A stretch of DNA of 64,000 bases, from the IMG/VR virus record IMGVR_UViG_3300032227_000993. One strand, 5' to 3'. Shown piece after piece: positions 4,896 through 38,357 of this stretch. The notes under the pieces are model-generated. The model did not search any database. It was given only the letters and a program-made list of their open reading frames with translations, and was not told the origin of the DNA. The position numbers were made by a program, and so were the translations under genes. Every line of letters begins with the position of its first letter. Position 1 is the stretch's first letter. Origin of the DNA: a virus. Its lineage: Duplodnaviria; Caudoviricetes.

Positions 4896-5804
4896 TTAGC
4901 CAGCTGAATAGTAAGCCATACCAGCTCCGGTACTGGATGCGTCGCCTGTGATTGTGTAACTAGACGCAGCAATAGCATAGTTAGCACTAGGGTCTTTTAT
5001 TTCGTTAGTAAATGTGTATCCTAGAGAACTGCCTGGATCAAAAGCAATGTCCCCAGCGTTGACCACAGGTGCTATTTTGAAATAACTACCTGTTATTGGT
5101 GGCAGGAATGAAGCAATATTAGGTGGAGTAAATGTTGAAGTGTAAACAGCATTGCCTACAGTATATCGAGTATTACGAGTTTTGCCTGTATAGTTGTATA
5201 TACTATTGCCGCTGTCGTATCTACTAAAGGCCTGAACGCCATACATACCTATGGTAGCTCCGGTGGCAGAAGGATTAGTAATACTAGCAGAAAAAGAAGT
5301 AGTGTATGAAAGTGTTCCGTTGACCCATAAGTTAAGTGTGCCAGACGAGCGAGTTACTGCCAAATGGTTCCAGGTATTTTGTAGAATAAAGTTACTGTTA
5401 AGCGGATCAGCTGTGCCAGTGTTAACAACTGTGCCGTAGGCACCAGTGGTGCCTTTCATACTGGCTACCAACTGCCAATGTACTCCGTCCGTGCCGTAGG
5501 TAGCACTATTGTTTAGTAATCCTAACCCTAAGTCAGCATCAAAAATAGTATTGTTGCCACCCAAGGTCCAAATGCCTGTTAACTGTTGGGAGCCAGTAAA
5601 GTACGCCCAAGATTCAATACAAAAGTCACCTACACCAGGATACCAGGATGCCCAGGTGGTATTAGTAGTACTGCTATTGCTACCGGACATATACAAACTA
5701 CAACCTGGATTGGTAAATGGTTGGCTATTGTCCACCGACATCATCCATAATGCCGGAGGCGGATTAAACCCCTGTACATCAGAAAAGCTAGGACTAATAA
5801 GCAT
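4896..5804 (-). CDS. LamG/concanavalin-A-like lectin-domain virion protein
   Basis: GDFCIESWAYF...WNHLAVTRSSGTLNLWVNG...YTGKTRNTRYTVGNAVYTSTFTPP pattern of phage LamG domains. Confidence 0.8.
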   Translation of the reverse strand: MLISPSFSDVQGFNPPPALWMMSVDNSQPFTNPGCSLYMSGSNSSTTNTTWASWYPGVGDFCIESWAYFTGSQQLTGIWTLGGNNTIFDADLGLGLLNNSATYGTDGVHWQLVASMKGTTGAYGTVVNTGTADPLNSNFILQNTWNHLAVTRSSGTLNLWVNGTLSYTTSFSASITNPSATGATIGMYGVQAFSRYDSGNSIYNYTGKTRNTRYTVGNAVYTSTFTPPNIASFLPPITGSYFKIAPVVNAGDIAFDPGSSLGYTFTNEIKDPSANYAIAASSYTITGDASSTGAGMAYYSAG

Positions 5805-8800
5805 TATGTGTAATCCGTTGATGAACCTAACACCAACAAGTTACCACCATTGTTTAATATTGAGTAACTCAATGTATTAATAAATCCTGCGATGATTGGA
5901 GGCTGTACACCGTTGGTCCAACGTACTGCGGTATTGGCACCGTTGATCTGGAATGCATCGTATGGTGTGTACAACGGAGTGCTTGCGCCACCTGGATCCA
6001 ACAACAATGTTACCACAGCAACAGCTGAGTTAGAAATAGTCAAGTTAGCCAAGTTAACACCCCAGTTGGCTGTAGCGGCAGAAATATCTACATAAAAAAT
6101 TTGTGAACTTGTGCAATCATAACTGTTGACGGCATTACTTGTTACTGTAGAAGTAGCAAATGTAGTTACGGCGCTGGTTACAGGATTGTAAGTAAACTCT
6201 TTGGTGGTGGTGTTGTAGAACAACTGATTAGTAGTATTACCTGAATCGCTGCGAACATTATTAAAGAATACACTGGCATTACTAAATGTTGCCGCAGTAG
6301 AGTTAGCCACGGACATAGTGATGTTGCCATCACTACTAGAAATACTTACATTACTTGTACCGTTGCTGATAGAGTTAGCTGAACCGCCACCGCCTGCGCC
6401 GTATGTCAACTCTTTTGTAGTAGTGTTGTAGTAAACAGCGTTGGTTACGTTACCTGTATCGTTACGTACTGGCGCCGCATAGAAGCCGGAATTACTGGCA
6501 TTAACAGCGGTACCTGAACCGTTGAGGATAATGCTGTTGGCTACTTGTGTAGTTTGCCCTGCAAAACGACCAATAGCAATACTATTAATACCTTGGACGT
6601 TGGCGCCAGCACTAGTTCCAATAGCAACAGCGTTAGCACCTTGTGTGGTTAGGCCGGCTCCAGTACCAATAGCAACAGCAGAATTACCCTGAGTATTTCC
6701 TGCGGCGCTAGCTCCGATAGCAATACTTTGTGTGCCCTGTGCCCCAGCTGTGCCACAGGCTTGATAACCGATGGCAATGGCACCAGAGCCCGATCCAAAG
6801 TAACTAGTCTGGTAACCCATAGCAATAGCACCTGTGCCTGACCCACTAAAGGCAGCACTATCACCAATACTGATAGCTCTAGTTCCCGACGCTGTTCTAG
6901 CCGCGGTTGTTCCGATTGCTACTGCGCCTAACCCTTGGCTAGTTGCTCCAGCAAGTTGTCCAATAGCAATGGCAGTATTACCTTGACTGGTTCCAGCTGC
7001 ACCAAATCCAATTGCTACAGCATTTTGACCTTGTGTCCCTGCGCCAGCGTTTGCTCCAATAGCAACCGACTGTAGTCCTTGTGTTGTTGCTCCGGCATTG
7101 TAACCCATAGCCACTGCTTGTGTGCCTTGGGCTGCATTACCAGCAAGTGCTCCTACGGCCACAGCTCCTGAAGCTTGTGTGTTACCGCCAGCATTGGTTC
7201 CGATAGCAATACCGTTTTGAGCTTGTGAAGCGTAACCAGCATTAAAGCCCAAGGCAACTGTGTAAAGGCCTTGTGTTATTGCTCCAGCATTGTAACCTAC
7301 AGCAACAGCGTTGGCACTTTGTGTAGTGGTACCTGCTTGGAAACCAATAGCCACAGCAGTAGTGCCTTGTGTGTTACCGCCAGCTAAGTAACCAACAGCT
7401 ATTCCAAAATTGCCTTGTGTACTATTCCCAGCGGAATAACCAATGGCAACAGCGGCGCCACCTTGCGTATTAGCGGCAGCCTCTCTACCAATGGCAATAC
7501 TATTAATTCCTTGAGTGTTGGCGCCAGCATTTAGACCGATAGCAACAGAGTTGCCTCCTTGTGATGAATTTCCTGCCAAGCGACCAATAGCAACTGCTTG
7601 AGTACCTTGACTTGTTAAACCTGCTTGCCAACCTATAGCAATACTGCTAGCACCTTGCGTAGTTGCGCCCGCACCTTGACCAACAGCAACGCTTTGTGCG
7701 CCTTGTGTTGTAAGACCGGCTTGCCAACCAATACCAACAGCACCAGAGCCTTGACTGCTATTACCTGCCAGATAGCCAATGGCAATAGCCTGAGTACCTT
7801 GTGTATTGGCGCCAGCTTCGCGACCAATAGCAATGGCATTAACACTTTGAGAATTAGAAGCTGCCTGGAAGCCGATAGTAACAGTAGTATTTGATAAATT
7901 AAATGATTGTGTGCCAGTAATACCCATTGTAATGTTAGCATTTGCGGCGACCGTTACATTACTTGTACCGTTGGTTAAACTTGTTGGAGTTCCAGCCAAG
8001 CCAGTGAGTAGTGCTCCGTTACCAATAAAATAGTTGCCACTGATATTACCAGTGGCACTTACCAGACCAACCGCAGAAATATTGCCGCCTGTGACATTGC
8101 CTGTGGCACTTACTAGTCCACCGGTTCGAACATTGCCTCCTGTAACATTGCCTGTGGCACTTACCAAGCCAGCAGTAGTGATGTTACCTGAGATAACATT
8201 ACCTGTAGCACTTACTAATCCAGTGACAGTCAACCCTGTGTTGGCAAATACACCAACAATATTAGCAGTAGAGCCGCCACCAGCAATAACTTTGACTTCT
8301 TTGCCACTAGTGCCAGCACCAAGAATTAAGTTACCACCGTTGTCGCCTGCGCCATTGCCAAATGTGTACAAGTAAGCATCGTTGGCTCGGACACTGGTAC
8401 CAAGCGCATTAGCTGATAAGCCATCGTAGGTTGATGACGCAATACCCAAGTCAACATAATATGTTGTGTTGGTACCATTATCAGCAGTGGCCACGTAGTC
8501 TGCACTTGCGCCAGATCCAGAGTTGATATTCTGGAAGTTTAACTGTGCGTAATCAGGATAGTTAGCACTAAATTGTGTTACTGTAGCTGGCAAGTTGGCA
8601 AAGCCGCTTGAGATACCTGCGTATAGTGCGCCAAATCCAAACGAGTCGCCAAAGAAGCTACCTTGATTACCTGTGATTTGATTAATGTTGCCTGGTAGTG
8701 TTACATTGCCTGTGACTACCAAGTTACCAATAGTAGCGTTACCCGACACACCTAGGGTAGCACTATTAACAGCACCACTAACAGCCAGGGCTGATAAGTT

Positions 8801-11800
8801 GCCTAAACTGGTAATATTAGGTTGTGCGTTGGTGGTTAGTGTGCCGCCAATCGCGCCCGAGTAAGTTGGCAAGTAAGCGCCTACTTCGGTATTACCATAC
8901 ATACCGGTCAACTGACTACCGTTACCTAAGAAATATGATCCTGTTATATTACCAACAGCACTTAAATTGTTACTTACGGTCCAAGTATCAGTGGCACTGG
9001 CCCAAGTAAATGTAGCATATTCAGCATTGGCTGGTCCAACTCCAAAACCAGCACCGTTGGCATAAATTGCCGCGTTGGCATTATTGGCCACGTTGAATAC
9101 CAAGTCATTGATAGAAACGTTGTTACTATCAACAGTAGTTGTTGTTCCTTGAACTACTAGGTTACCAGTGATGAGAGCATTACCAGCTTGAATATTACCT
9201 GTGTAGGTTGGCAAGTAAGCTCCTACCTGTGTATTGCCATACATACCTGTAAGATTACTACCGTCACCAGTAAAATATCCACCGATAACATTACCTATGA
9301 CGACAGCGTTAGCTTCAACGTTAATACTGCCACCAAAATAGCCATCAAGTAAAGAGCCAATACTTTCGTTTGCTATGATATTGTTAGCACTAATATCGCC
9401 AGCGGTTGTGAATCCAGCTGTGTCGTTGCCAGATGCTAGATAAAGAGAAACGTCAGCATTGCCATAATTAGCTGGCAGTCCTGTAATGTTACTACCATCA
9501 CCATACAAGTAACTACTGACTAAATTGCCAGTGGTTACAATATTGCTAGTGGTACCGCTTTCTAAGAACGTAGAAACATTAGAGTTAGTATATACTTGAC
9601 CTTGTAAGGTTGTTACATTACTGGCAACGTTGGCAACATTGCTATCTGTATTTGCTAAACTTGTAGTTAGATTAGCCACGTTACTATTTGTATTAGCAAC
9701 ATTGGCATTTGTATTTGCTAAACTTGTTGTCAAGTTAGCTACGTTACTGTTTGTATTTGCTAAGTTATTGTTTGTAGTAGATAGATTTGTAGTTAAGTTG
9801 GCTACGTTGCTGTTAGTGTTAGCAACGTTGGCATTTGTGCTGACAATGGCATTGCCCAAGGCCGCGCCTTGAATCTCAACGTTGGCCAAGTCGGCATTAG
9901 TGTTAGCTAAACTTAATGTTAAATTAGCTACATTACTATTTGTATTAGCAACATTGGCATTTGTATTTGCTAAACTTGTTGTCAAATTAGCTACATTACC
10001 GTTTGTATTTGCTACATTACTATTAATGCCAATAATAGTATTACTGGTTGGCAAATACGCTTCAACATTGGCATTGCCATATCCGCCAGCGGCAGTTACT
10101 ACGTTTTGAACAAAACTTGTGGTTGCTACCAAGTTTGAATTATCCGAATTACCTTGTGTAGTTGCTATTAAGTTACCAGTTACTGTTAGATTGGATATGT
10201 TACCCGAGTAGGTAGGCAAGTAAGCAGCAACATCAGCATTGCTATAGCCAGCAGGTAAGCCAGAGATAAACGCACCGTTACCTAATAAGTAAGCACCACT
10301 AATATTGGCAGTGGTTGTAATGTTACCAGTGGTACTGATTATGGCATTGGTGCCTGCGCCCAAGAATGATTGTGTATTAGCGTTAGTGTAAACTTGACCT
10401 TGTAAAGTGGTAACGTTACTGGCTATGTTGGCAACATTACTGTTGGTATTGCCTTGTGCGATTGCTAGATTGGCAACATTGCCGTTTGTGTTAGCTACAT
10501 TGGAATTGATGCCAATGATAATGTTACTTGTTGGCAAGTAAGCTTCTACGTTGGCATTACCATAGGAGGCTGGAAGTCCTGTTAGCTGACTACCGTTACC
10601 AATAAAATAGTTGCCGGTCACATTACCAGTGGCACTTACTAATCCAGCTGTTAAAATATTGCCAGCAGATATGGTATTGCCAACTGTAGCAGTTTGTGTA
10701 GCGGCATTGTATGTAAAGCCAATGTCCGATCCAGCATTGCCATTATTGTTATATATTACCCAAGTGTTACTACCAGGAACAACTAAGTTACCTGAGATAT
10801 TACCTTGGAAGTTACCGATAAAAGTTGTGGCTGTGACTGTGTTGCTAACATTTATGTTTGTAGCATAGATGTTGCCAGTGGTGTTGGCATTGCCAAGATA
10901 TGCTGATACGTTAGCATTAGCATAAACTTGTCCTTGTAGTGTTGTTACATTAGATGCTACATTAGATACATTAGAATCTGTGTTAGCTAAACTTGTTGTT
11001 AAATTTGCTACGTTACTATTTGTATTAGCTACATTTGCATTTGTATTAGCAAGAGCGTTGACTCCTTCTGTTGTTGAGATCTGCAACTGAGAAATACTGT
11101 TGGTATTATTTGCAGTAACTAGTGTTAAGTTAGCTAAGTTACTGTTAGTATTAGCTACGTTAGCATTGATAGCAATAATTGTATTACTAGATGGTAAGTA
11201 TGCTTCAACGTTAGCATTACCATATGCGCCATTAATATTAGCTGCATTAATATTTGATAATAATGATCCATTACCAATAAAATAGTTAGCAGTTACATTG
11301 CCGCCAGCAACTATGTTACCAGCGGTTGAAAATTGACCAGCAGTAAGATTACCTGTGTATGTAGTCAAATAATCTGCTACATTAGCATTGCCATAGTTAC
11401 TAGCACCGGCGGCAGTAGTTTGAACTGTGCCGTCAGCAAAGGTGATCCCAGCGCCAGGAGTAGCATTAGACACAACAACATTACCAGCAATAATATTGGC
11501 AGTGGTGGCAATGTTGGCTGTTTGTGGAGCAGCTGTGTTAGAACTCAACACAACAGGAACGTTGTTAACTAATAAATCGTTGTTTGCGGTTAAACTTACA
11601 GGAATTGAATTCAAATAAATTGTGTTGTTACTTACCCACAAGTCTTTCCATTGATTAGTACTGTTACCCAAACTTAATGTCACATTAGAAGCAGGAATAA
11701 CGTTAGTGGTTACCGCTGTTAAATTTACATTGCCAGTAGTAATGCCAGTGAGTTGGCTACCATTACCAAGTATGTAATTTCCAGTGATGTTACCTGTAGC

Positions 11801-11836
11801 TGATACGCCTAAAATTCCGTTTAAATTAATTGACAT
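5804..11836 (-). CDS. Giant tail/hair fibre protein (2010 aa) with coiled-coil stalk and YadA-like head repeats
   Basis: GNVTG/GNITG beta repeats, [VL]AN[TL]xxx heptads, 27 tandem xAIAIGxxAG repeats. Confidence 0.85.
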   Translation of the reverse strand: MSINLNGILGVSATGNITGNYILGNGSQLTGITTGNVNLTAVTTNVIPASNVTLSLGNSTNQWKDLWVSNNTIYLNSIPVSLTANNDLLVNNVPVVLSSNTAAPQTANIATTANIIAGNVVVSNATPGAGITFADGTVQTTAAGASNYGNANVADYLTTYTGNLTAGQFSTAGNIVAGGNVTANYFIGNGSLLSNINAANINGAYGNANVEAYLPSSNTIIAINANVANTNSNLANLTLVTANNTNSISQLQISTTEGVNALANTNANVANTNSNVANLTTSLANTDSNVSNVASNVTTLQGQVYANANVSAYLGNANTTGNIYATNINVSNTVTATTFIGNFQGNISGNLVVPGSNTWVIYNNNGNAGSDIGFTYNAATQTATVGNTISAGNILTAGLVSATGNVTGNYFIGNGSQLTGLPASYGNANVEAYLPTSNIIIGINSNVANTNGNVANLAIAQGNTNSNVANIASNVTTLQGQVYTNANTQSFLGAGTNAIISTTGNITTTANISGAYLLGNGAFISGLPAGYSNADVAAYLPTYSGNISNLTVTGNLIATTQGNSDNSNLVATTSFVQNVVTAAGGYGNANVEAYLPTSNTIIGINSNVANTNGNVANLTTSLANTNANVANTNSNVANLTLSLANTNADLANVEIQGAALGNAIVSTNANVANTNSNVANLTTNLSTTNNNLANTNSNVANLTTSLANTNANVANTNSNVANLTTSLANTDSNVANVASNVTTLQGQVYTNSNVSTFLESGTTSNIVTTGNLVSSYLYGDGSNITGLPANYGNADVSLYLASGNDTAGFTTAGDISANNIIANESIGSLLDGYFGGSINVEANAVVIGNVIGGYFTGDGSNLTGMYGNTQVGAYLPTYTGNIQAGNALITGNLVVQGTTTTVDSNNVSINDLVFNVANNANAAIYANGAGFGVGPANAEYATFTWASATDTWTVSNNLSAVGNITGSYFLGNGSQLTGMYGNTEVGAYLPTYSGAIGGTLTTNAQPNITSLGNLSALAVSGAVNSATLGVSGNATIGNLVVTGNVTLPGNINQITGNQGSFFGDSFGFGALYAGISSGFANLPATVTQFSANYPDYAQLNFQNINSGSGASADYVATADNGTNTTYYVDLGIASSTYDGLSANALGTSVRANDAYLYTFGNGAGDNGGNLILGAGTSGKEVKVIAGGGSTANIVGVFANTGLTVTGLVSATGNVISGNITTAGLVSATGNVTGGNVRTGGLVSATGNVTGGNISAVGLVSATGNISGNYFIGNGALLTGLAGTPTSLTNGTSNVTVAANANITMGITGTQSFNLSNTTVTIGFQAASNSQSVNAIAIGREAGANTQGTQAIAIGYLAGNSSQGSGAVGIGWQAGLTTQGAQSVAVGQGAGATTQGASSIAIGWQAGLTSQGTQAVAIGRLAGNSSQGGNSVAIGLNAGANTQGINSIAIGREAAANTQGGAAVAIGYSAGNSTQGNFGIAVGYLAGGNTQGTTAVAIGFQAGTTTQSANAVAVGYNAGAITQGLYTVALGFNAGYASQAQNGIAIGTNAGGNTQASGAVAVGALAGNAAQGTQAVAMGYNAGATTQGLQSVAIGANAGAGTQGQNAVAIGFGAAGTSQGNTAIAIGQLAGATSQGLGAVAIGTTAARTASGTRAISIGDSAAFSGSGTGAIAMGYQTSYFGSGSGAIAIGYQACGTAGAQGTQSIAIGASAAGNTQGNSAVAIGTGAGLTTQGANAVAIGTSAGANVQGINSIAIGRFAGQTTQVANSIILNGSGTAVNASNSGFYAAPVRNDTGNVTNAVYYNTTTKELTYGAGGGGSANSISNGTSNVSISSSDGNITMSVANSTAATFSNASVFFNNVRSDSGNTTNQLFYNTTTKEFTYNPVTSAVTTFATSTVTSNAVNSYDCTSSQIFYVDISAATANWGVNLANLTISNSAVAVVTLLLDPGGASTPLYTPYDAFQINGANTAVRWTNGVQPPIIAGFINTLSYSILNNGGNLLVLGSSTDYT
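6539..7840 (-). repeat. 27 tandem ~48-bp (16-aa) YadA/Hep-Hag-like coding repeats
   Basis: Counted 26 units of 16 aa and one of 18 aa, consensus xAVAIGxxAGxxTQGx. Confidence 0.9.
9600..10030 (-). repeat. Tandem 21/42-bp coding repeats encoding ANTNSNVANLTTSL heptads (shorter copies near 10430-10520 and 10940-11180)
   Basis: Recurrent near-identical DNA blocks such as gtatttgctaaacttgttgtcaa; heptad periodicity. Confidence 0.85.
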
Positions 11837-31616: not shown

Positions 31617-32375
31617 TTATTTACGCTCAATATCTTCTTCTCGGCAGTTGGTACCATATTGTATTTCTATTATGCGGCAAGGAGATCCAAATGGATTAGT
31701 TAACTGATGCCACGCGCCTACCTGTATTTTGTATTCTTGGTGTGTGCTTAATAGCATTGGCGGTAATTGGTATCCATCTTCGGTAATGGTATTAACTGCG
31801 CAGGCACCTTCCTCTACTATCCAGTACTCAGCTCGTTCATTGTGCTTTTGCATACTCAAGCTCTTACCTGAGTCTACTGTAAGTTCTTTAACTTTCATGC
31901 CAGGTGCTTCGTGTAGTACTCGATAGTAACCCCATTGACGTTCGGTCTTGGGTGCTTTCCATTCTTGTAAAATCCAACTGCTACTATTGGCCTTGTCCTC
32001 ACCGCCTACCCCAAATACAAATTCTACACCAGGTACACTCATTTCTGGAATGTTGTCTTGTGTACGATCACCGCCATTGGCAAAAATAATATGCGCCTCT
32101 GGATAATGAGCGCGAACCTGTTCCAACAAGTGACAAGCGGTACCGTCACTGTCATCAAAAGTGTAAACTTCTTCAACTGCGGCTAGATTGTTGACTACGC
32201 ATAAGCGTTCAGTCCAGGGCATGAAAGCACGGCCCTTTTTACGGGCCAGCCACTCGTCGCTGTTAATACCTACAATTAACATATCGCCCAGCAAACGTGC
32301 TTGTTTGATCAATTTAATGTGACCTGAGTGTAACGGATCGAATCCGCCACTACATACTACAATTTTTGTTTTCAT
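31617..32375 (-). CDS. Bifunctional cytidylyltransferase-like (HIGH) plus mannose-6-phosphate-isomerase-type cupin
   Basis: SGGFDPLHSGH, IFANGGDR; ERQWGYYRVL, SLSMQKHNERAEYW, WHQLTN, IIEIQYG. Confidence 0.85.
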   Translation of the reverse strand: MKTKIVVCSGGFDPLHSGHIKLIKQARLLGDMLIVGINSDEWLARKKGRAFMPWTERLCVVNNLAAVEEVYTFDDSDGTACHLLEQVRAHYPEAHIIFANGGDRTQDNIPEMSVPGVEFVFGVGGEDKANSSSWILQEWKAPKTERQWGYYRVLHEAPGMKVKELTVDSGKSLSMQKHNERAEYWIVEEGACAVNTITEDGYQLPPMLLSTHQEYKIQVGAWHQLTNPFGSPCRIIEIQYGTNCREEDIERK

Positions 32376-32617
32376 TAATGTATAATTTTATTAGGACTTT
32401 CGTCTGGTAAAGAATTTAGTGCTTTGATGTACTTAGTAAACTTTTCATCTAATTCAATGATGTCATCGTCTTGGTCGGCCGCTCTTTCATTGCTCACGCC
32501 AATCAATCGCATGAGTCCGCCCATATGGATGTAATTAATGCCGTGCTTTTGTAGCACCAACATAATCTCCATGATTAGTTTGCGAGCTTCCCACTCTAGA
32601 TCTTTATCATCTGCCAT
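32375..32617 (-). CDS. Hypothetical protein
   Basis: ATG 32617, 5 nt after TAAATT. Confidence 0.55.
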   Translation of the reverse strand: MADDKDLEWEARKLIMEIMLVLQKHGINYIHMGGLMRLIGVSNERAADQDDDIIELDEKFTKYIKALNSLPDESPNKIIH

Positions 32618-32657
32618 ACTATAATTTAGCACAGAAGATTTTAAAGATAAAAATTGG

Positions 32658-34073
32658 TCAGCGGGCCAGCAAGTCCGGTAGTACTAGTTTATGTACTGTA
32701 ACTGTAGATGTGGCCACTTGCTGTGGTTCTAGGGCTGTTACCTTGGGAGCATTAGCGTCACGCTCAAAGTTACCAGCTACTACTTCTAAGTCCTGTACCG
32801 TTAAGTTGCCGGCCAATTGCTTGAGCTTTAGTGTAGCGGCTAGGTAAGTGTATTTGGCCTGTGCTAAATCTTTCTGGGCTGTAACCAGGACTTTTTCAGC
32901 CAATAGTACATCAACTGAAATACGCTCACCGGCCTGTACACTTTTACGCATGGCCTTGGTTAATTCGCTACCGGATTCAACAGCACGTTCTAATGCTGCT
33001 ACCTTTTGACGGCTGGATACCACTAGGTCATATTGCCGACGTAATTCTGTAATCACACGACTGCGAACAGCTTCTGTATCAGCTTGTGCTTTTTCCCAAT
33101 TGGCATTGGCCTGTTTAGTTAGACCATATGTTTGTCCGCCGTTGCTCAATTGCCAAGTTGCTTGTACACCAACCATGGTGCTGTTGGCAGTTTGGTTAAT
33201 GGTAGAAACATAGTAAGAACTTTGTTGGTTGTATTGCGCAATAGCAGAGATGACCGGCGCATTGTTGCTTATCTGTTTGTTGTATTCTTGTTTGGCCGCT
33301 TCTTCGCTATTTTTGGCCGCAGCAATCTCTGCGTTGTTAGATAACGCTGTGTCTTGCCATTGGTCAAATGTCATTGCGACCGGAGAAACTTTAAAGTTTG
33401 TGCTTAATTTTTTAACTTCGGCAGCCGAGTTTAATTTAACACCCATCATTGCTTCTAGTTTACGACGAGCATTTTCTAAGTTGTCTTTGGCTTCGATAAC
33501 CTGTACATCAGCTAACTCAAAACTTGCCTTGGTTTCTAGCACTTCGGTCACTGTGCCATCACCGGCCCGAAGTCTACGTTCATTGATGGTCACTTGCTCT
33601 CGGTACGCATCACGTTGTGCTGTGTAGTAAGTAATTTGATCACGATAAAATAATACTTCTGTGTAGGCCTGTGTAGTACGCACCAATAACTCTTGTGAGT
33701 TGTGTACAAACTTGGACCGGGCCATGTCTGCTTGTGCGTAGCCTTGTTTGGCACTGGCCCAGGCATTCAAGTTGATCAATGCTTGTGTAAGTTGTACACC
33801 ACCGTTGGTACTTGGATAGGTCATGTTATTTGTTGAATAACCTGTTTGACTAATCCTAGTGGCGTTGCTTGCTTGATAAAAGTTAGCAGATATCTGTGGT
33901 AACAAACCAGCACGACCAATAATCTTGTTAGCATCTCCGGCTTCAAACTCTTTGGTCGCTACCTTGTATGCTGGATCGTTCACAAGGGCTAGGTCATATG
34001 CCTGCATCAAATCTAGGGCATTGGCATTAGACATTAGCAACGCGGTTGATACAGCTAACAGTGACTTCTTCAT
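32658..34073 (-). CDS. prtF: TolC-family type I secretion outer-membrane protein (PrtF/AprF-like)
   Basis: Signal peptide; LMQAYDLALVNDP, GRAGLLPQIS, two-repeat OEP pattern, GERISVDVLLAE. Confidence 0.92.
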   Translation of the reverse strand: MKKSLLAVSTALLMSNANALDLMQAYDLALVNDPAYKVATKEFEAGDANKIIGRAGLLPQISANFYQASNATRISQTGYSTNNMTYPSTNGGVQLTQALINLNAWASAKQGYAQADMARSKFVHNSQELLVRTTQAYTEVLFYRDQITYYTAQRDAYREQVTINERRLRAGDGTVTEVLETKASFELADVQVIEAKDNLENARRKLEAMMGVKLNSAAEVKKLSTNFKVSPVAMTFDQWQDTALSNNAEIAAAKNSEEAAKQEYNKQISNNAPVISAIAQYNQQSSYYVSTINQTANSTMVGVQATWQLSNGGQTYGLTKQANANWEKAQADTEAVRSRVITELRRQYDLVVSSRQKVAALERAVESGSELTKAMRKSVQAGERISVDVLLAEKVLVTAQKDLAQAKYTYLAATLKLKQLAGNLTVQDLEVVAGNFERDANAPKVTALEPQQVATSTVTVHKLVLPDLLAR

Positions 34074-34074
34074 A

Positions 34075-35073
34075 TTATTCCTCGCGTAGTGCTGAATGAG
34101 CACGGTCTACAACAGGTTTAAACAAATAGGATAATAATGTGCGTTCACCAGTTACCACAAACACTTCAGTTGGCATACCCGGACGTACTTGATTACTTGC
34201 TAATAACTTCTTACCAGCAGGAGTTACCTCTACTTGTATCTTGTAATAAGACATTCCTGACTTGGGATCTTGTGTAGTATTGGCCGCTACCCTAGTAACT
34301 GTTGCTGGAATACTAGGAGTGGTACTTTGATTAAATGCCGGAAACATTACTTCAACTGGAAGACCCTTGTGTACCTTGTCAATCATGTTGGTCGGCAAGT
34401 GTGCTTCTACTACCAAGGGCATATTTTGCGGGACCACTTCCATTACCTTGGTACCTGCTTGGATAACTGCGCCTGGATTGTACACTTCCAAATTGGCCAC
34501 TGTACCACTCACCGGAGCCTTGAGTTCTGCGTTGGCAAGATCAAAGTCACTAGCTGGTAGTTTGGCCTGTTCTTCGGCCAAGGCTGAACTGACCTGCGAA
34601 TAGTTGCGTTCTGCGTCAATCAACTTGTTGCGTGACATATAACCGTCTTTGGCCAGTTCACGATAACCTGCTAACTGTTCTTTGATCAAGACCAGTTGGC
34701 GTTGTTTACTAGCAATAGATTCACGGAGTGCTGTGTTCTGTGCTGTTTGCTGTGTAGCGTTCATACGAGCTAGGACTTGTCCTGCCACGACTTGGTCGCC
34801 TTCTTTGACCAGGATTTCTTTAACGATGCCGCCTTGTGCTGACTGGATAGTTTGACGATGACCGTCTGTGATGACTACGCCTGCGGCTGGTACACCTTTG
34901 TCTAACGGAGCAAGACCTGCCCACAGCATAAAGCCGCCAAATCCTACAGCTACAACCAACATACCAACACGAGCGTAATGTGTTTCATCTTGCTCGATAT
35001 CTTTGTTAACAGTAGCTTCTGCTACCACATTAAACTTGTGTTTGAGCCAGTTTTTAGATTGTGTTTTTAACAT
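34075..35073 (-). CDS. prtE: HlyD-family type I secretion membrane fusion protein (PrtE/AprE-like; short)
   Basis: N-terminal TM (FGGFMLWAGLAPLD), GGIVKEILVKEGDQV, LKAPVSGTV, RPGMPTEVFVVTGERTLLSYLFKP. Confidence 0.92.
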   Translation of the reverse strand: MLKTQSKNWLKHKFNVVAEATVNKDIEQDETHYARVGMLVVAVGFGGFMLWAGLAPLDKGVPAAGVVITDGHRQTIQSAQGGIVKEILVKEGDQVVAGQVLARMNATQQTAQNTALRESIASKQRQLVLIKEQLAGYRELAKDGYMSRNKLIDAERNYSQVSSALAEEQAKLPASDFDLANAELKAPVSGTVANLEVYNPGAVIQAGTKVMEVVPQNMPLVVEAHLPTNMIDKVHKGLPVEVMFPAFNQSTTPSIPATVTRVAANTTQDPKSGMSYYKIQVEVTPAGKKLLASNQVRPGMPTEVFVVTGERTLLSYLFKPVVDRAHSALREE

Positions 35074-35077
35074 ATTA

Positions 35078-36778
35078 TTACTCACTTGGTTGTGCCTCAC
35101 GGTTTAAATTCATAATGTCCGACAATACCTTGTCTGTGGTACCAAATGCTGTCATCATACCGCCGTGTAAGACCATTAGCTGTGTGGTCTCTTGGATAAT
35201 GTCCGGACGATGTGTGATCAATACAACTGTAGTGCCAGCCAAACGCAACTGTCTAATGGCGTTTGTCAAGGCTGACTCACCCACTTGGTCCAAGTTTGAA
35301 TTGGGTTCGTCTAGAACAACCAAAGCTGGATCATTGTAAAGAGCACGGGCCAGGGCTACACGTTGTTTCTCTCCGCCTGATAGACCTGTACCATCTACGC
35401 CAATTGTAGTATCGTAACCGTTGGGCATACGCAAGATCATATCGTGTACTCCAGCCAGTGTTGCGGCTTTAACTACTGCTTGAGAATCAATGTTGCCAAA
35501 CCTAGCAATGTTCTCACTGATAGTACCAGCAAATAGCTCAATGTCTTGTGGCAAGTAACCAATGTTGGGTCCTAACTCATCCTTGTTCCACTTGCTAATA
35601 TCCGCACCATCTAGTCGTACTGTACCAATTGTTGGAGCACCAATGCCTACCAACAACCTAGCTAATGTAGATTTACCTGCGCCCGACTGACCAATAATGC
35701 CCAAGCAATCACCTGCGTCAATACCAAAGTTCAAGTTCTTTAATACTGCAGCTGTGGTACCTACTGGCGCCGCTGTTACGCCTTCTACATTCAATCGACC
35801 TACGGGTTTAGGTAATGTCATGCCCGGCCTACGAGCTGGGTTTTTAGATAACAATAGATCCAGTCGCTTGTAGGCACTGACCACGCCAGCCCATTGACGC
35901 CATACTCCAATGATTTGTTCTACTGGGGCAAGTGTACGTCCCAACAAAATACTAGCAGCAATCATCATACCCGAAGTTACTTGGCCTTTGATCACTAGCC
36001 ATGCTGCTACACCAAGTATCAAACTCTGTGCCGCGGTGCGAACAAATTTGGTAACAGCCGCAATCTTGTGAGCTCGTTGGCTAGCAGTTTGTTGCAAGGA
36101 TAAAAACTTGCTGTGTTCACTGTACCAACGTTGGCGCATATTAGGTAACATACCCATGGCATCGATCACTTCTGCGTTACGCAACGTATTACCAGCCATG
36201 TTGGTAGATCTCACACTGGCATCACTTGCTTCAGTCAAGGCCTTGTGAGATACCAACTCGTTAATCCAAGCAAGACCTACCAGCAATATTGTACTCAGTA
36301 AAGCAAATACGCCTAGCCATGGATTAAAAATAAAGATAATAGCAAGATAAATTGGAAACCAAGGAGCGTCAAAAAACGCAAACACACCTGTGCCAGTTAC
36401 AAACTGCCTGATAGTGCTCAAGTCATTCAAGGCTTGTCCAGCATTTACTCCATCTTTGGTCAAGTTCTGTTCAAACGCCGCGGTGTAAACACGTTGATTT
36501 AATTCAACGTCTATCTTGGCACCTACTCGTAACACGACCATGCTGCGAAAATATTCAATAACAGAAGTTAGTGCGTAAAGACCTGCGGCCATCACAGTAA
36601 GCATGACCAATGTGTATTGATTATGACTTGCTAACACTCTATCATAAACTTCCATCATGTACATGGATGGAACCAAAAGCAAAATGTTAATTACCACAGT
36701 AAAGATACCGATAGCATAAAACACCTGCTTGAATTTGTAAAGTGTTTGAACTATTTCGTTTTGATTATTTTCGCGCAT
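35078..36778 (-). CDS. prtD: PrtD/AprD-family type I secretion ABC transporter
   Basis: SMYMMEVYDRVL, FFDAPWFP, Walker A GQSGAGKST, YLPQD, LSGGEKQR, LDEPNSNLD, ITHR. Confidence 0.95.
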   Translation of the reverse strand: MRENNQNEIVQTLYKFKQVFYAIGIFTVVINILLLVPSMYMMEVYDRVLASHNQYTLVMLTVMAAGLYALTSVIEYFRSMVVLRVGAKIDVELNQRVYTAAFEQNLTKDGVNAGQALNDLSTIRQFVTGTGVFAFFDAPWFPIYLAIIFIFNPWLGVFALLSTILLVGLAWINELVSHKALTEASDASVRSTNMAGNTLRNAEVIDAMGMLPNMRQRWYSEHSKFLSLQQTASQRAHKIAAVTKFVRTAAQSLILGVAAWLVIKGQVTSGMMIAASILLGRTLAPVEQIIGVWRQWAGVVSAYKRLDLLLSKNPARRPGMTLPKPVGRLNVEGVTAAPVGTTAAVLKNLNFGIDAGDCLGIIGQSGAGKSTLARLLVGIGAPTIGTVRLDGADISKWNKDELGPNIGYLPQDIELFAGTISENIARFGNIDSQAVVKAATLAGVHDMILRMPNGYDTTIGVDGTGLSGGEKQRVALARALYNDPALVVLDEPNSNLDQVGESALTNAIRQLRLAGTTVVLITHRPDIIQETTQLMVLHGGMMTAFGTTDKVLSDIMNLNREAQPSE

Positions 36779-36790
36779 GATTGTCTTCTA

Positions 36791-37882
36791 TTAAAGAGCA
36801 TTAAGGGTAGCGGCAATTTGTCCTGACACTGGACTAGACCATAAGTCAACACCCAATCTGGCCATTTGCTGATAGCCGGGACCACTGGTAACATACCAAG
36901 GATCATATTCACCAATGGTAACACCCTTGACTCCAGCATTTTTTGACACATTGACAAAGGCCTGATAAGCCATTACCTGCTCTTGATGATTGGTTTGTAT
37001 GCTATTGAGCGCACCTGGGTTAGAAAGGAATAACTGCCATGCTGATGTGCCTGTGCCTACGCCGGCTTGTGCTTCATCGTTGTAGTGGGCAATAAATGTT
37101 TTGTTACCATAAGCATCGGCCATATTTTTTAACAGTTGTGCGTGACCTGTAGCGTTCCAACCTGCTTCGATTTGTGCCACACTAGTGCCGGTACCGATGG
37201 GTGGTTTGACTTGATAATCTACAATATTGACCATGCCAAACACTGAGTTATTGTAAAATGCTTCGTAGCCAACTGGTCCGCTGTAGGCAGATTTAACTGC
37301 GGCGATCACTGGGGCAAAATATGCTTGAGCATTGGCACCAGTATCAAATCCCAAGTTATTACTGCCAACAAAAAAGCCATCTACCTTGTGTGCTTGTGCT
37401 TGTGCCGCAAGACCTTTGTCATAAGCCGCTACGTTGGCCCATACTTGGCTGGCACTAACCCCGGCAGCCAACGGTGAGCTTGAAGTAAACGCAGGGTCAG
37501 CTGCGTTGACTGATCCGTCTGGGTTAACACCAATGTCCACACTGGCCTTGATGTAAACTTTAAGACCAATATTTTTAGCATAGTCTACAATAGACCAAAA
37601 GTCTTTTGGTAACGGATGGCCAGCACTATCAATGCTGCCATCTTTGGCGTTGACGGAAACCTGAGCGGCCATGGTCACAGTATTGTACCCTTCGGCCTTT
37701 AGCTGTGCCAACTTTGGGTTGATGTTACCGGCTGTATTGGCTCCGCCCATTTCGTAACGTATATCTAAGTAAGTATTTTTAATTGCCATTCCTGGACTCC
37801 CTGTTTGAGGACCGGCCGAAGAACCTCCGCCGCTGCTACCACCCCCAAAAAGACTTCCAAAGAAATCAAAAAAACCGGACAT
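36791..37882 (-). CDS. Putative T1SS cargo: GH113/clan GH-A-like TIM-barrel protein, apparently non-catalytic
   Basis: LKAEGYNTVTM, IVDYAKNIGLKVYIK, AQAHKVDGFFVGSN, VIAAVKSAYSGPVGY follow GH113 order; 13 nt upstream of prtD. Confidence 0.55.
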   Translation of the reverse strand: MSGFFDFFGSLFGGGSSGGGSSAGPQTGSPGMAIKNTYLDIRYEMGGANTAGNINPKLAQLKAEGYNTVTMAAQVSVNAKDGSIDSAGHPLPKDFWSIVDYAKNIGLKVYIKASVDIGVNPDGSVNAADPAFTSSSPLAAGVSASQVWANVAAYDKGLAAQAQAHKVDGFFVGSNNLGFDTGANAQAYFAPVIAAVKSAYSGPVGYEAFYNNSVFGMVNIVDYQVKPPIGTGTSVAQIEAGWNATGHAQLLKNMADAYGNKTFIAHYNDEAQAGVGTGTSAWQLFLSNPGALNSIQTNHQEQVMAYQAFVNVSKNAGVKGVTIGEYDPWYVTSGPGYQQMARLGVDLWSSPVSGQIAATLNAL

Positions 37883-37902
37883 GATAGTTCCTTCATTGTT
37901 TG

Positions 37903-37927
37903 AAACGGGGGCCTAAGCCCCCTGTTT
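37903..37927 (-). terminator. GC hairpin (weak terminator or mRNA stabiliser) at the head of the T1SS operon
   Basis: GGGGGC-CTAA-GCCCCC with only a short U-tract. Confidence 0.55.
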
Positions 37928-37928
37928 G

Positions 37929-38261
37929 TTAAGCTGCAACCTTGGCTTTTGCTTTGGTTGCTACCTTGGCACCTGCGACTTTGATTTCGCCTTTCTTAGC
38001 GATCTTGGTCTTTTCTGCTAGTTTAGCAGATACTGCGTAACCTGCGTCACCTAAGGTAAATGCTTCACCTTGGGCTTGTAGATACTGTAGTGCCTCGAGC
38101 TTGGTCATTGGCTGTGGAAGCTCAATGAGATTGATGTTAGTACAATTATTTTTGTTAAGGATCTTGATACGAGCTACCAAGTCATTAGCAAAACGAGCCT
38201 TGACTGTACCGTCAGGGTTAGTTGCTGTACCTGCTACTGTAAACATTTTTTCTGATGCCAT
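37929..38261 (-). CDS. Hypothetical basic phage protein
   Basis: ORF with Lys/Ala-rich tail, downstream of a sigma70 promoter. Confidence 0.65.
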   Translation of the reverse strand: MASEKMFTVAGTATNPDGTVKARFANDLVARIKILNKNNCTNINLIELPQPMTKLEALQYLQAQGEAFTLGDAGYAVSAKLAEKTKIAKKGEIKVAGAKVATKAKAKVAA

Positions 38262-38328: not shown

Positions 38329-38357
38329 ATTGTAGCTGAATTCGATTATGATGTCAA
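38329..38357 (-). promoter_or_regulatory. Sigma70-type promoter
   Basis: TTGACA-N17-TACAAT. Confidence 0.8.

Follow-up and report, generated by a model that had tools for sequence, protein, structure and literature searches.

A type I secretion cassette with a GH113-like candidate substrate in a freshwater jumbo phage

Gene content of the secretion block

The 64-kb stretch of IMG/VR record IMGVR_UViG_3300032227_000993 analyzed here (the window; all positions are numbered within it) comes from a freshwater jumbo phage. It carries a compact block of genes for a type I secretion system (T1SS) and a glycoside hydrolase (GH)-like protein, the probable substrate of that system. The open reading frame (ORF) listing and family scans place four co-directional genes on the minus strand at 32658-37882. 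Their order is the GH-like gene (37882-36791; 363 amino acids for the full ORF, including an N-terminal tag), a PrtD-type T1SS ATP-binding cassette (ABC) permease/ATPase (35078..36778; 566 amino acids), an HlyD/AprE-family periplasmic adaptor (34075..35073; 332 amino acids, with an N-terminal transmembrane anchor), and a TolC-family outer-membrane channel (32658..34073; 471 amino acids, with a Sec signal peptide). Translations place the likely start of the adaptor, whose ORF spans 35100-34075, at ATG 35073, which gives a protein of the same length as its relatives, and that of the channel, whose ORF spans 34103-32658, at ATG 34073. With these starts adopted, the intergenic gaps are 12, 4, and 1 nucleotides, in agreement with the tight co-directional packing (gaps of 1-12 nucleotides) reported in the initial annotation.

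The ABC protein is a half-size exporter of the PrtD subfamily of T1SS transporters, with a transmembrane domain and a nucleotide-binding domain. It scores 743.6 bits against TIGR01842 (type_I_sec_PrtD; cutoff 510.15), covers profile positions 2-543 of 544, and falls far under the cutoffs of the HlyB, LssB, MsbA, glucan-exporter, lipid A, and HepA exporter models. All ATPase motifs are intact and readable in the translation: Walker A (GQSGAGKST, K369), the Q-loop (Q411), the LSGGE signature at 466-470, Walker B (D490-E491), and the H-loop (H523). No N-terminal C39 or CLD domain is found on the protein. The adaptor reaches 277 bits against TIGR01843 (cutoff 208.65), with the match split into three stretches because the helical hairpin is shortened; its N-terminal transmembrane segment is VGMLVVAVGFGGFMLWAGLA. 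The channel scores 258 bits against TIGR01844 (cutoff 225), has two OEP repeats, and begins with the signal peptide MKKSLLAVSTALLMSNANA. These scores and translations uphold the initial assignments of a full-length PrtD-type ABC transporter with intact Walker A/B, LSGGE, and H-loop motifs, an HlyD-family adaptor, and a TolC-family channel with a signal peptide. By family membership, the three components constitute a complete and intact PrtD-type T1SS.

The set closely resembles T1SSs of the PrtDEF, AprDEF, and HasDEF type. Shared features are an ABC protein without an N-terminal C39 or CLD domain, the gene order ABC, adaptor, TolC-like channel, scores above the TIGR01842, TIGR01843, and TIGR01844 cutoffs, and a substrate gene (here, that of the candidate substrate) directly upstream whose product has no N-terminal leader. 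It differs from them in being encoded by a phage, in having a GH113-like barrel without RTX repeats as its candidate substrate, and in its adaptor, which is ~80-120 residues below the typical length; the bacterial sister systems are likewise short. Substrates of the PrtD group need not have RTX repeats, and to our knowledge HasA alone among the classical substrates of the PrtD/AprD/HasD group lacks them. Mechanistically, this is an ordinary T1SS of the PrtD/AprD/HasD group; its carrier and its cargo are what make it unusual.

The GH-like protein belongs to a small family, with only 13 relatives among 5.8 billion clusters. Its only Pfam match is GH113 (PF22612), at 26.5 bits and just under the cutoff of 27, and several homologues carry a precomputed PF22612 match. 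An AlphaFold2 model predicts a (beta/alpha)8 barrel with a mean confidence (pLDDT) of 84.8 and disorder in residues 1-30; the barrel is encoded at 36791..37789 on the minus strand and comprises 332 amino acids from Met32. The top 15 Foldseek matches in the PDB are all GH113 beta-mannanases (template-modelling scores 0.65-0.75, E 5e-15 to 4e-11), and GH113 profile matches reach E 2e-9. Sequence identity to these mannanases is only 14-17%. The initial annotation had likened the block to exporters of proteases and S-layer proteins; this analogy does not carry over to the cargo, since a GH113-like fold rules out an S-layer, protease, or lipase protein.

The best structural matches, the GH113 beta-1,4-mannanases AxMan113A (5YLH/5YLI), BaMan113A (7DV7), and AaManA (3CIV), share with the phage protein a glutamate at the end of strand 7. 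This residue, Glu325, is invariant in 22/22 sequences, falls at the end of strand 7 as predicted (320-326), and is the presumed nucleophile. In contrast, the acid/base glutamate in the GCE motif of 5YLH and 7DV7 aligns, in both profile and pairwise alignments, with Asn175 in a G-S-N-N motif. Among homologues, position 175 is aspartate in three bacterial orthologues and serine in the outlier P0013, and a glutamate (TNE) is found only in divergent bacterial paralogues. With its presumed nucleophile kept and the usual acid/base missing, the modeled protein appears not to be simply "dead." The residue pattern would fit a protein that binds glycans, a transglycosylase-like enzyme, or an enzyme whose acid/base is relocated or supplied by the substrate.

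The N-terminal tag comprises 31 residues (37790..37882, minus strand) and consists of MSGFFDFFGSLFGGG followed by a Gly/Ser/Pro linker, with the pattern M-[SG]-x-F-D-F-[FL]-G-x-[LI]-F-G-G-G. Met32, an internal start at 37789, is shared by all homologues. An AGGGAG-like ribosome-binding site precedes Met32. The tag itself is conserved in peptide sequence and yet polymorphic: the window and the related contigs L086, L089, L090, and L094 carry it as an in-frame fusion, and an in-frame TAA severs it in L087 (8414-8506), which comes from a 98% identical strain. It is absent from L001 (8900-8990), L088, L093, one contig of sequencing run X3 (which skips 37800-37895), and all bacterial orthologues. 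Long and short forms of the GH-like protein may both be made. A role of the tag as a membrane-targeting or retention element is speculative.

The GH-like protein as candidate substrate

The reading we favor is that a captured PrtD-type T1SS cassette exports its GH-like substrate before lysis to act on polysaccharide, and we regard it as probable, if some way from assured. Gene context bears on the identity of the substrate. The closest cellular relatives of the cassette lie on three metagenome contigs (L003, L004/L005, and L092) that are clearly bacterial, with dnaX-ybaB-recR, RND pumps, porins, and toxin-antitoxin genes. In these contigs, a divergent GH113-like paralogue that retains the canonical N-E motif lies upstream of the T1SS, and one or two copies of the phage-type GH orthologue lie downstream of it on the other strand; the T1SS also has a small RTX protein encoded beside it. 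GH113-like genes flank orthologous T1SSs in three bacterial contigs, and the same holds for at least seven phage assemblies. No Sec/Tat leader and no cysteine (0-1 among homologues) are present in the GH-like protein, which has few charged residues, a pI of 5.5, and a conserved C-terminal tail, QIAxTLNAL (QIA-x-TL-N/A-A/V-L across homologues). T1SS substrates are expected to show these traits, which are not, however, unique to them. The initial proposal that the upstream gene encodes the cargo is therefore sustained in part: gene context, the missing Sec leader, the lack of cysteine, and the conserved C-terminus speak for it, and the absence of RTX repeats and the retention of the T1SS in two phages without the gene speak against it. 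On this evidence, the GH-like protein is a probable, though not an exclusive, substrate.

Several further observations weigh against the favored reading. No RTX nonapeptide (GGxGxDxUx) was found by regular-expression search in the GH-like protein or in any of the six frames of the window, nor did the GH-like protein have a HemolysinCabind match, and the C-terminal signals of T1SS substrates are not recognizable from sequence. Contig L096, with 96-98.5% nucleotide identity to L001, lacks exactly L001 8978-9994, the GH gene, and has intact T1SS ORFs. In a 110-kb contig whose ABC protein is 93% identical to that of L001, the ABC, adaptor, and channel genes directly follow a 109-amino-acid gene, again with an intact T1SS and no GH gene. 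Since these two relatives keep the machine, for some time at least, without the GH gene, the GH-like protein cannot be the sole reason for its retention; they reflect either other substrates or uses, or recent losses. In bacteria, the closest orthologues of the GH gene run convergently to the T1SS operon and are not co-transcribed with it. The whole cassette is absent from 11 syntenic relatives and is therefore dispensable, and the missing acid/base residue makes hydrolytic activity uncertain. A complex prediction for the ABC and GH-like proteins returned a score of 0.00, which speaks neither for nor against binding.

Unlikely, and still to be taken seriously, is the alternative that the T1SS functions in infection with another phage or host protein as its cargo, the GH-like protein not being the (main) substrate and either staying inside the cell or being released at lysis. 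The RTX proteins that adjoin the same T1SS in bacterial relatives are more classical substrates, yet the RTX motif occurs nowhere in the 64-kb window. The two related phages with an intact T1SS and no GH gene fit this alternative as well, although L096 may simply represent a very recent deletion. The lack of RTX repeats in the GH-like protein also points this way, but a leaderless, cysteine-free, low-charge protein with an extracellular-enzyme fold fits secretion, and the linkage of GH and T1SS genes is conserved in bacteria and phages, the two having been transferred together.

In L001 (14185-15075) and L096 (4618-5421), the gene directly downstream of TolC specifies a polysaccharide lyase (PF14099) that bears a lipoprotein signal peptide; the window has no homologue. 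Its lipoprotein signal peptide rules it out as a second cargo.

The surroundings of the cassette share a recurrent theme of surface or matrix glycans. A metallophosphoesterase and a GT4 glycosyltransferase, assigned by Pfam family and conserved across the clade, are encoded at 41242-39338 on the minus strand. A nucleotidyltransferase-cupin fusion, combining a cytidylyltransferase-like domain with a cupin of the mannose-6-phosphate-isomerase type, is encoded at 32375-31617 on the same strand; it recurs in the cassette-less contigs L110, L119, and L120 and not in L001. An FkbM methyltransferase is also encoded near the cassette. In L007 (4558-18965), a sister Burkholderiaceae metagenome-assembled genome (MAG), the T1SS lies within a polysaccharide-synthesis cluster with a Wzx-like flippase and two GT4 genes, followed by the gene for a 1121-amino-acid DUF4214-RTX protein.

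Such neighborhoods raise the possibility that the tripartite pump exports a non-protein compound (an oligosaccharide, polysaccharide, glycolipid, or small molecule) and that the GH-like protein is its processing partner, an alternative we consider improbable. The polysaccharide cluster of L007, the GT4 and nucleotidyltransferase-cupin genes near the cassette, and the polysaccharide-lyase lipoprotein of L001/L096 are in keeping with it. Yet the ABC protein scores 744 bits on a protein-exporter model, TIGR01842, and far below the glucan, lipid A, and HepA cutoffs, and L007 itself has a DUF4214-RTX protein beside its T1SS.

Bacterial descent and the insertion site in phages

The bacterial relatives on L003, L004/L005, and L092 are 71% (ABC), 57% (adaptor), 57% (channel), and 63% (GH-like protein) identical to the window. 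A tree of 88 ABC sequences with SH-aLRT supports groups the phage sequences into one clade (SH-aLRT 100, stem 0.35), sister (93) to the bacterial T1SSs with GH113-like neighbors. The phage sequences and their sister contigs lie inside a clade (99) with Polynucleobacter/Burkholderiaceae MAGs. The phylogeny called for in the initial annotation thus returns a phage-only clade nested in bacterial T1SSs. All of the nearest genomes for the ABC protein (80/80) are betaproteobacteria, and the adaptor and channel rank their relatives in the same order as the ABC protein. In the GH tree, a single split (97) parts the sequences in phage context from those in bacterial context. Database searches show a corresponding gap, with phage ABC proteins 83-100% identical and bacterial ABC proteins at most 72% identical. 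The simplest reading is a single capture of the GH and T1SS genes from a Burkholderiaceae-like host lineage of ~42-45% GC. A search of 401 genomes of the Burkholderiaceae-level family with the GH profile returned three weak domain matches within large proteins and no orthologues.

The 5.2-kb block lies between two conserved phage genes and is carried by at least eight related phage assemblies. Cassette-less relatives were found in IMG/VR with the neighboring GT4 and endolysin genes as anchors. In 11 distinct relatives (L100, L101, L102/L124, L110, L111, L112/L121, L113, L114, L119, L120, and L122), the 110-amino-acid gene that borders the block on the left is followed within a few hundred bases by a homologue of the 85-amino-acid gene that borders it on the right, with no T1SS or GH gene between. 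The GT4 protein is 90-94% identical to that of the window in some of these contigs, versus only 68% in the cassette-bearing L001. The distribution is therefore patchy, which fits loss or phage-to-phage exchange. No flanking direct or inverted repeats beyond chance expectation, as would mark a transposon or integration site, and no mobility genes were found. The block is an accessory cassette of cellular descent, situated at a fixed site in a syntenic phage backbone. It resembles phage morons and auxiliary genes, which are host-derived accessory genes that occupy a variable position within an otherwise conserved backbone.

Selection was compared among three phage lineages (the window, L001, and L086), which are separated by synonymous divergences (dS) of 1.2-4, near saturation. 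The ratio of nonsynonymous to synonymous divergence (dN/dS) spans 0.04-0.10 for the GH and adaptor genes alike, 0.05-0.11 for the ABC gene, and 0.05-0.17 for the channel gene. Because these ratios are so low at near-saturated dS, they indicate that strong purifying selection acts on all four genes, which have long been kept as working genes in phages. It is very improbable that the cassette is neutral passenger DNA, recently captured from a host and without a role in the phage life cycle. Its accessory, patchy distribution would agree with such a passenger, as would the adaptor of L093 (11706-12703), which is split into 65 and 282 amino acids by a frameshift or pseudogenization, or by a sequencing or assembly error. 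Against this stand the dN/dS values of 0.04-0.17 across all four genes and three lineages, the long stem (0.35) of the phage clade, a base composition adjusted to the phage, and ORFs that are intact in at least eight assemblies.

The surroundings of the block are those of a phage. A clamp loader encoded in the window matches PHROG 168 (E 3e-76) and is 52% identical to that of the Pseudomonas jumbo phage PA5oct and its relatives. Other phage-type genes encode baseplate-wedge and virion structural proteins, PhoH, a SleB-type endolysin, a DNA-polymerase-related protein, and an LPD29 protein. No integrase, insertion sequence, or housekeeping gene was found among ~40 flanking ORFs scanned, and a scan for tRNAs found none; the earlier description of ordinary phage genes around the block, without integrase, insertion sequence, or host housekeeping genes, is borne out. 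A protein identical to the ABC protein of the window is recorded on a 361,177-bp contig. This record and the phage hallmark genes identify the source as a jumbo phage of ~361 kb, and the sequence occurs in runs of freshwater or lake metagenomes that belong to five studies.

Two checks suggested by the initial annotation, coverage and continuity across 32-38 kb and synteny in related phages, agree with this source. Contig L001 is syntenic with the window from 26.9 to 41.6 kb across both junctions, with both flanks conserved at 74-79% nucleotide identity, and the same arrangement, flanked by phage genes, recurs in further assemblies from other samples (L086, L087, L089, L090, L093, L094/L095, and L096). 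In run X1, the probable source run, depth is even along one contig from 29 to 41 kb. Two contigs of run X2, at 31915-34222 and 37511-38015, bridge both junctions. The GC content is 45.1% in the cassette and 42.8% in the flanks, and its GC at third codon positions (0.38-0.40) is inside the range of other phage genes. Since independent assemblies bridge both junctions, the block is not an assembly chimera. The idea of a chimera, or of a bacterial contig with a prophage or genomic island, has in its favor only genes of clear bacterial descent and is effectively refuted by identical junctions in independent assemblies from several studies (L001, L086, L087, L089, L093, and L094), the bridging contigs of X2, the absence of a compositional break, phage structural and replication genes on both sides, and the clean insertion point defined by the cassette-less relatives.

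The left border of the insertion site is the 110-amino-acid basic phage gene (37929..38261, minus strand), which relatives carry whether or not they have the cassette. Its product has a Lys/Ala-rich, histone-H1-like tail and no Pfam or PHROG match. Between this gene and the cassette lies a GC-rich hairpin, GGGGGC-TTAG-GCCCCC (37907..37922, minus strand), and hairpins occur at the equivalent position in several relatives, including the cassette-less L100. Upstream of the 110-amino-acid gene, a sigma-70-like promoter, TTGACA-17-TACAAT (38329..38357, minus strand), matches 11/12 consensus positions; it is the best in the region, is identified by consensus match only, and may be a source of read-through transcription into the cassette. 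Promoter-like sites are no more numerous in the region than expected from shuffling, and the GH gene has no clear promoter immediately ahead of it. The right border is the small conserved phage gene of 85 amino acids (32375..32632, minus strand; likely start ATG 32617). Its ATG lies only 2 nucleotides after a promoter-like TTTAAA-16-TATAGT (32617-32645), and a start directly after such a site would seem to give a leaderless mRNA. In related contigs, an IF-1 (eIF-1a family) gene is encoded near the homologue of the 85-amino-acid gene.

Proposed role and precedents

We infer that the cassette is expressed in infection, that the machine assembles in the envelope, that the GH-like protein is its substrate, and that the exported protein has a target and confers a benefit. 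The phage lineage would have captured the genes once from a Burkholderiaceae-like betaproteobacterium and kept them under selection. During infection, the ABC protein, the membrane-anchored adaptor, and the phage's own channel would assemble in the host envelope; having its own channel would make the machine independent of host TolC. The GH-like substrate may be recognized via a conserved C-terminus that is not cleaved, and would pass outward with that end leading, the direction in which T1SS substrates exit (PMC4648471). It would reach the cell surface or medium before lysis and bind, trim, or remodel surface or matrix polysaccharide. The phage might benefit if receptors on debris and on the infected cell itself were destroyed or masked, or if capsule or matrix were loosened for progeny. 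Roles in exclusion, coating, or adhesion, as listed in the initial annotation, are conceivable on the same grounds. In one freshwater metatranscriptome run, 7% of the sampled words are present, a weak hint that the cassette is transcribed.

A more far-reaching proposal is that this freshwater jumbo phage clade has the first virus-encoded T1SS, used for pre-lysis export of a glycan-acting or glycan-binding protein. The polymorphic amphipathic tag would decide between tethering and release, and populations would switch between masking their own surface and remodeling the matrix. Because T1SS substrates exit C-terminus first, the N-terminal tag could set whether the protein is tethered or released. 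This proposal is tentative, and we rate its chances at somewhat less than even.

The nearest functional analogy is PrsDE of Rhizobium leguminosarum, which exports the exopolysaccharide glycanases PlyA and PlyB (PMC9298526, PMC2275737). With PlyA, PlyB, and the Rap proteins, it is a T1SS that delivers polysaccharide-processing proteins onto the cell's own surface or matrix glycan (PMC9298526, PMC2275737), and the bacterial relatives of the present cassette likewise lie in or near polysaccharide loci. The two differ in that PrsDE is chromosomal and its cargo probably has an unrelated fold. PrsDE also depends on a TolC encoded elsewhere.

Genes for metabolism, defence, and lysis are familiar in phages. 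The phage depolymerases we know of are either virion tailspikes or enzymes released at lysis. The candidate cargo resembles them in having a fold like that of polysaccharide enzymes; the difference would lie in a whole trans-envelope export machine carried for pre-lysis delivery.

The initial annotation held that a self-contained three-component T1SS is not standard in lytic phage genomes, and the searches bear this out, with no equivalent among 50,697 phage records or the papers covered. A tblastn search of these records with the ABC and channel proteins found no credible case of a phage T1SS, and a blastn search of phage records with the cassette gave no match. In IMG/VR, the search returned one contig only, a relative. 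A profile search of genome contigs for GH relatives, with one usable peptide pattern, found none. Jumbo- and huge-phage literature (PMC7824862, PMC13282480, PMC7162821, and PMC7318152) makes no mention of T1SS, TolC, or HlyD in phages, within a limited search that leaves the absence of a report unproven. The only close match to both ABC and TolC is L002 (OQ572413.1, "Pseudomonas phage Y12," flagged UNVERIFIED), where the region is 69% GC and has an AprDEF-like ABC-adaptor-channel arrangement; it is probably host DNA from the P. aeruginosa chromosome. Other TolC matches were Salmonella genome contigs, multi-contig "Acinetobacter phage MD-2021a" assemblies, and ~2-kb fragments, and were set aside as bacterial contigs filed as phage or as fragments.

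If it works, a secretion apparatus that spans both membranes with its own channel would represent a different kind of host takeover, the addition of a new export route. Export of the GH113-like protein before lysis would give phages a new way of dealing with capsules, biofilm matrix, and receptors, by an enzyme that is secreted and not tail-mounted. A further consequence would be evidence that T1SS operons travel whole between bacteria and viruses. Ready-made comparisons for experiments exist in nature: phages differ in having or lacking the cassette, in having or lacking the GH gene, and in a tag that is fused, stopped, or missing. The compact four-gene module, with its RTX-free cargo of ~330 amino acids, could serve as a small secretion cassette.

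Elsewhere in the window, at 5804-11836, a 2010-amino-acid protein of very low charge (pI 4.05) has a YadA-head repeat and coiled-coil segments and is probably a fibre. Short repeats of this protein recur at 51-52 kb and in L001.

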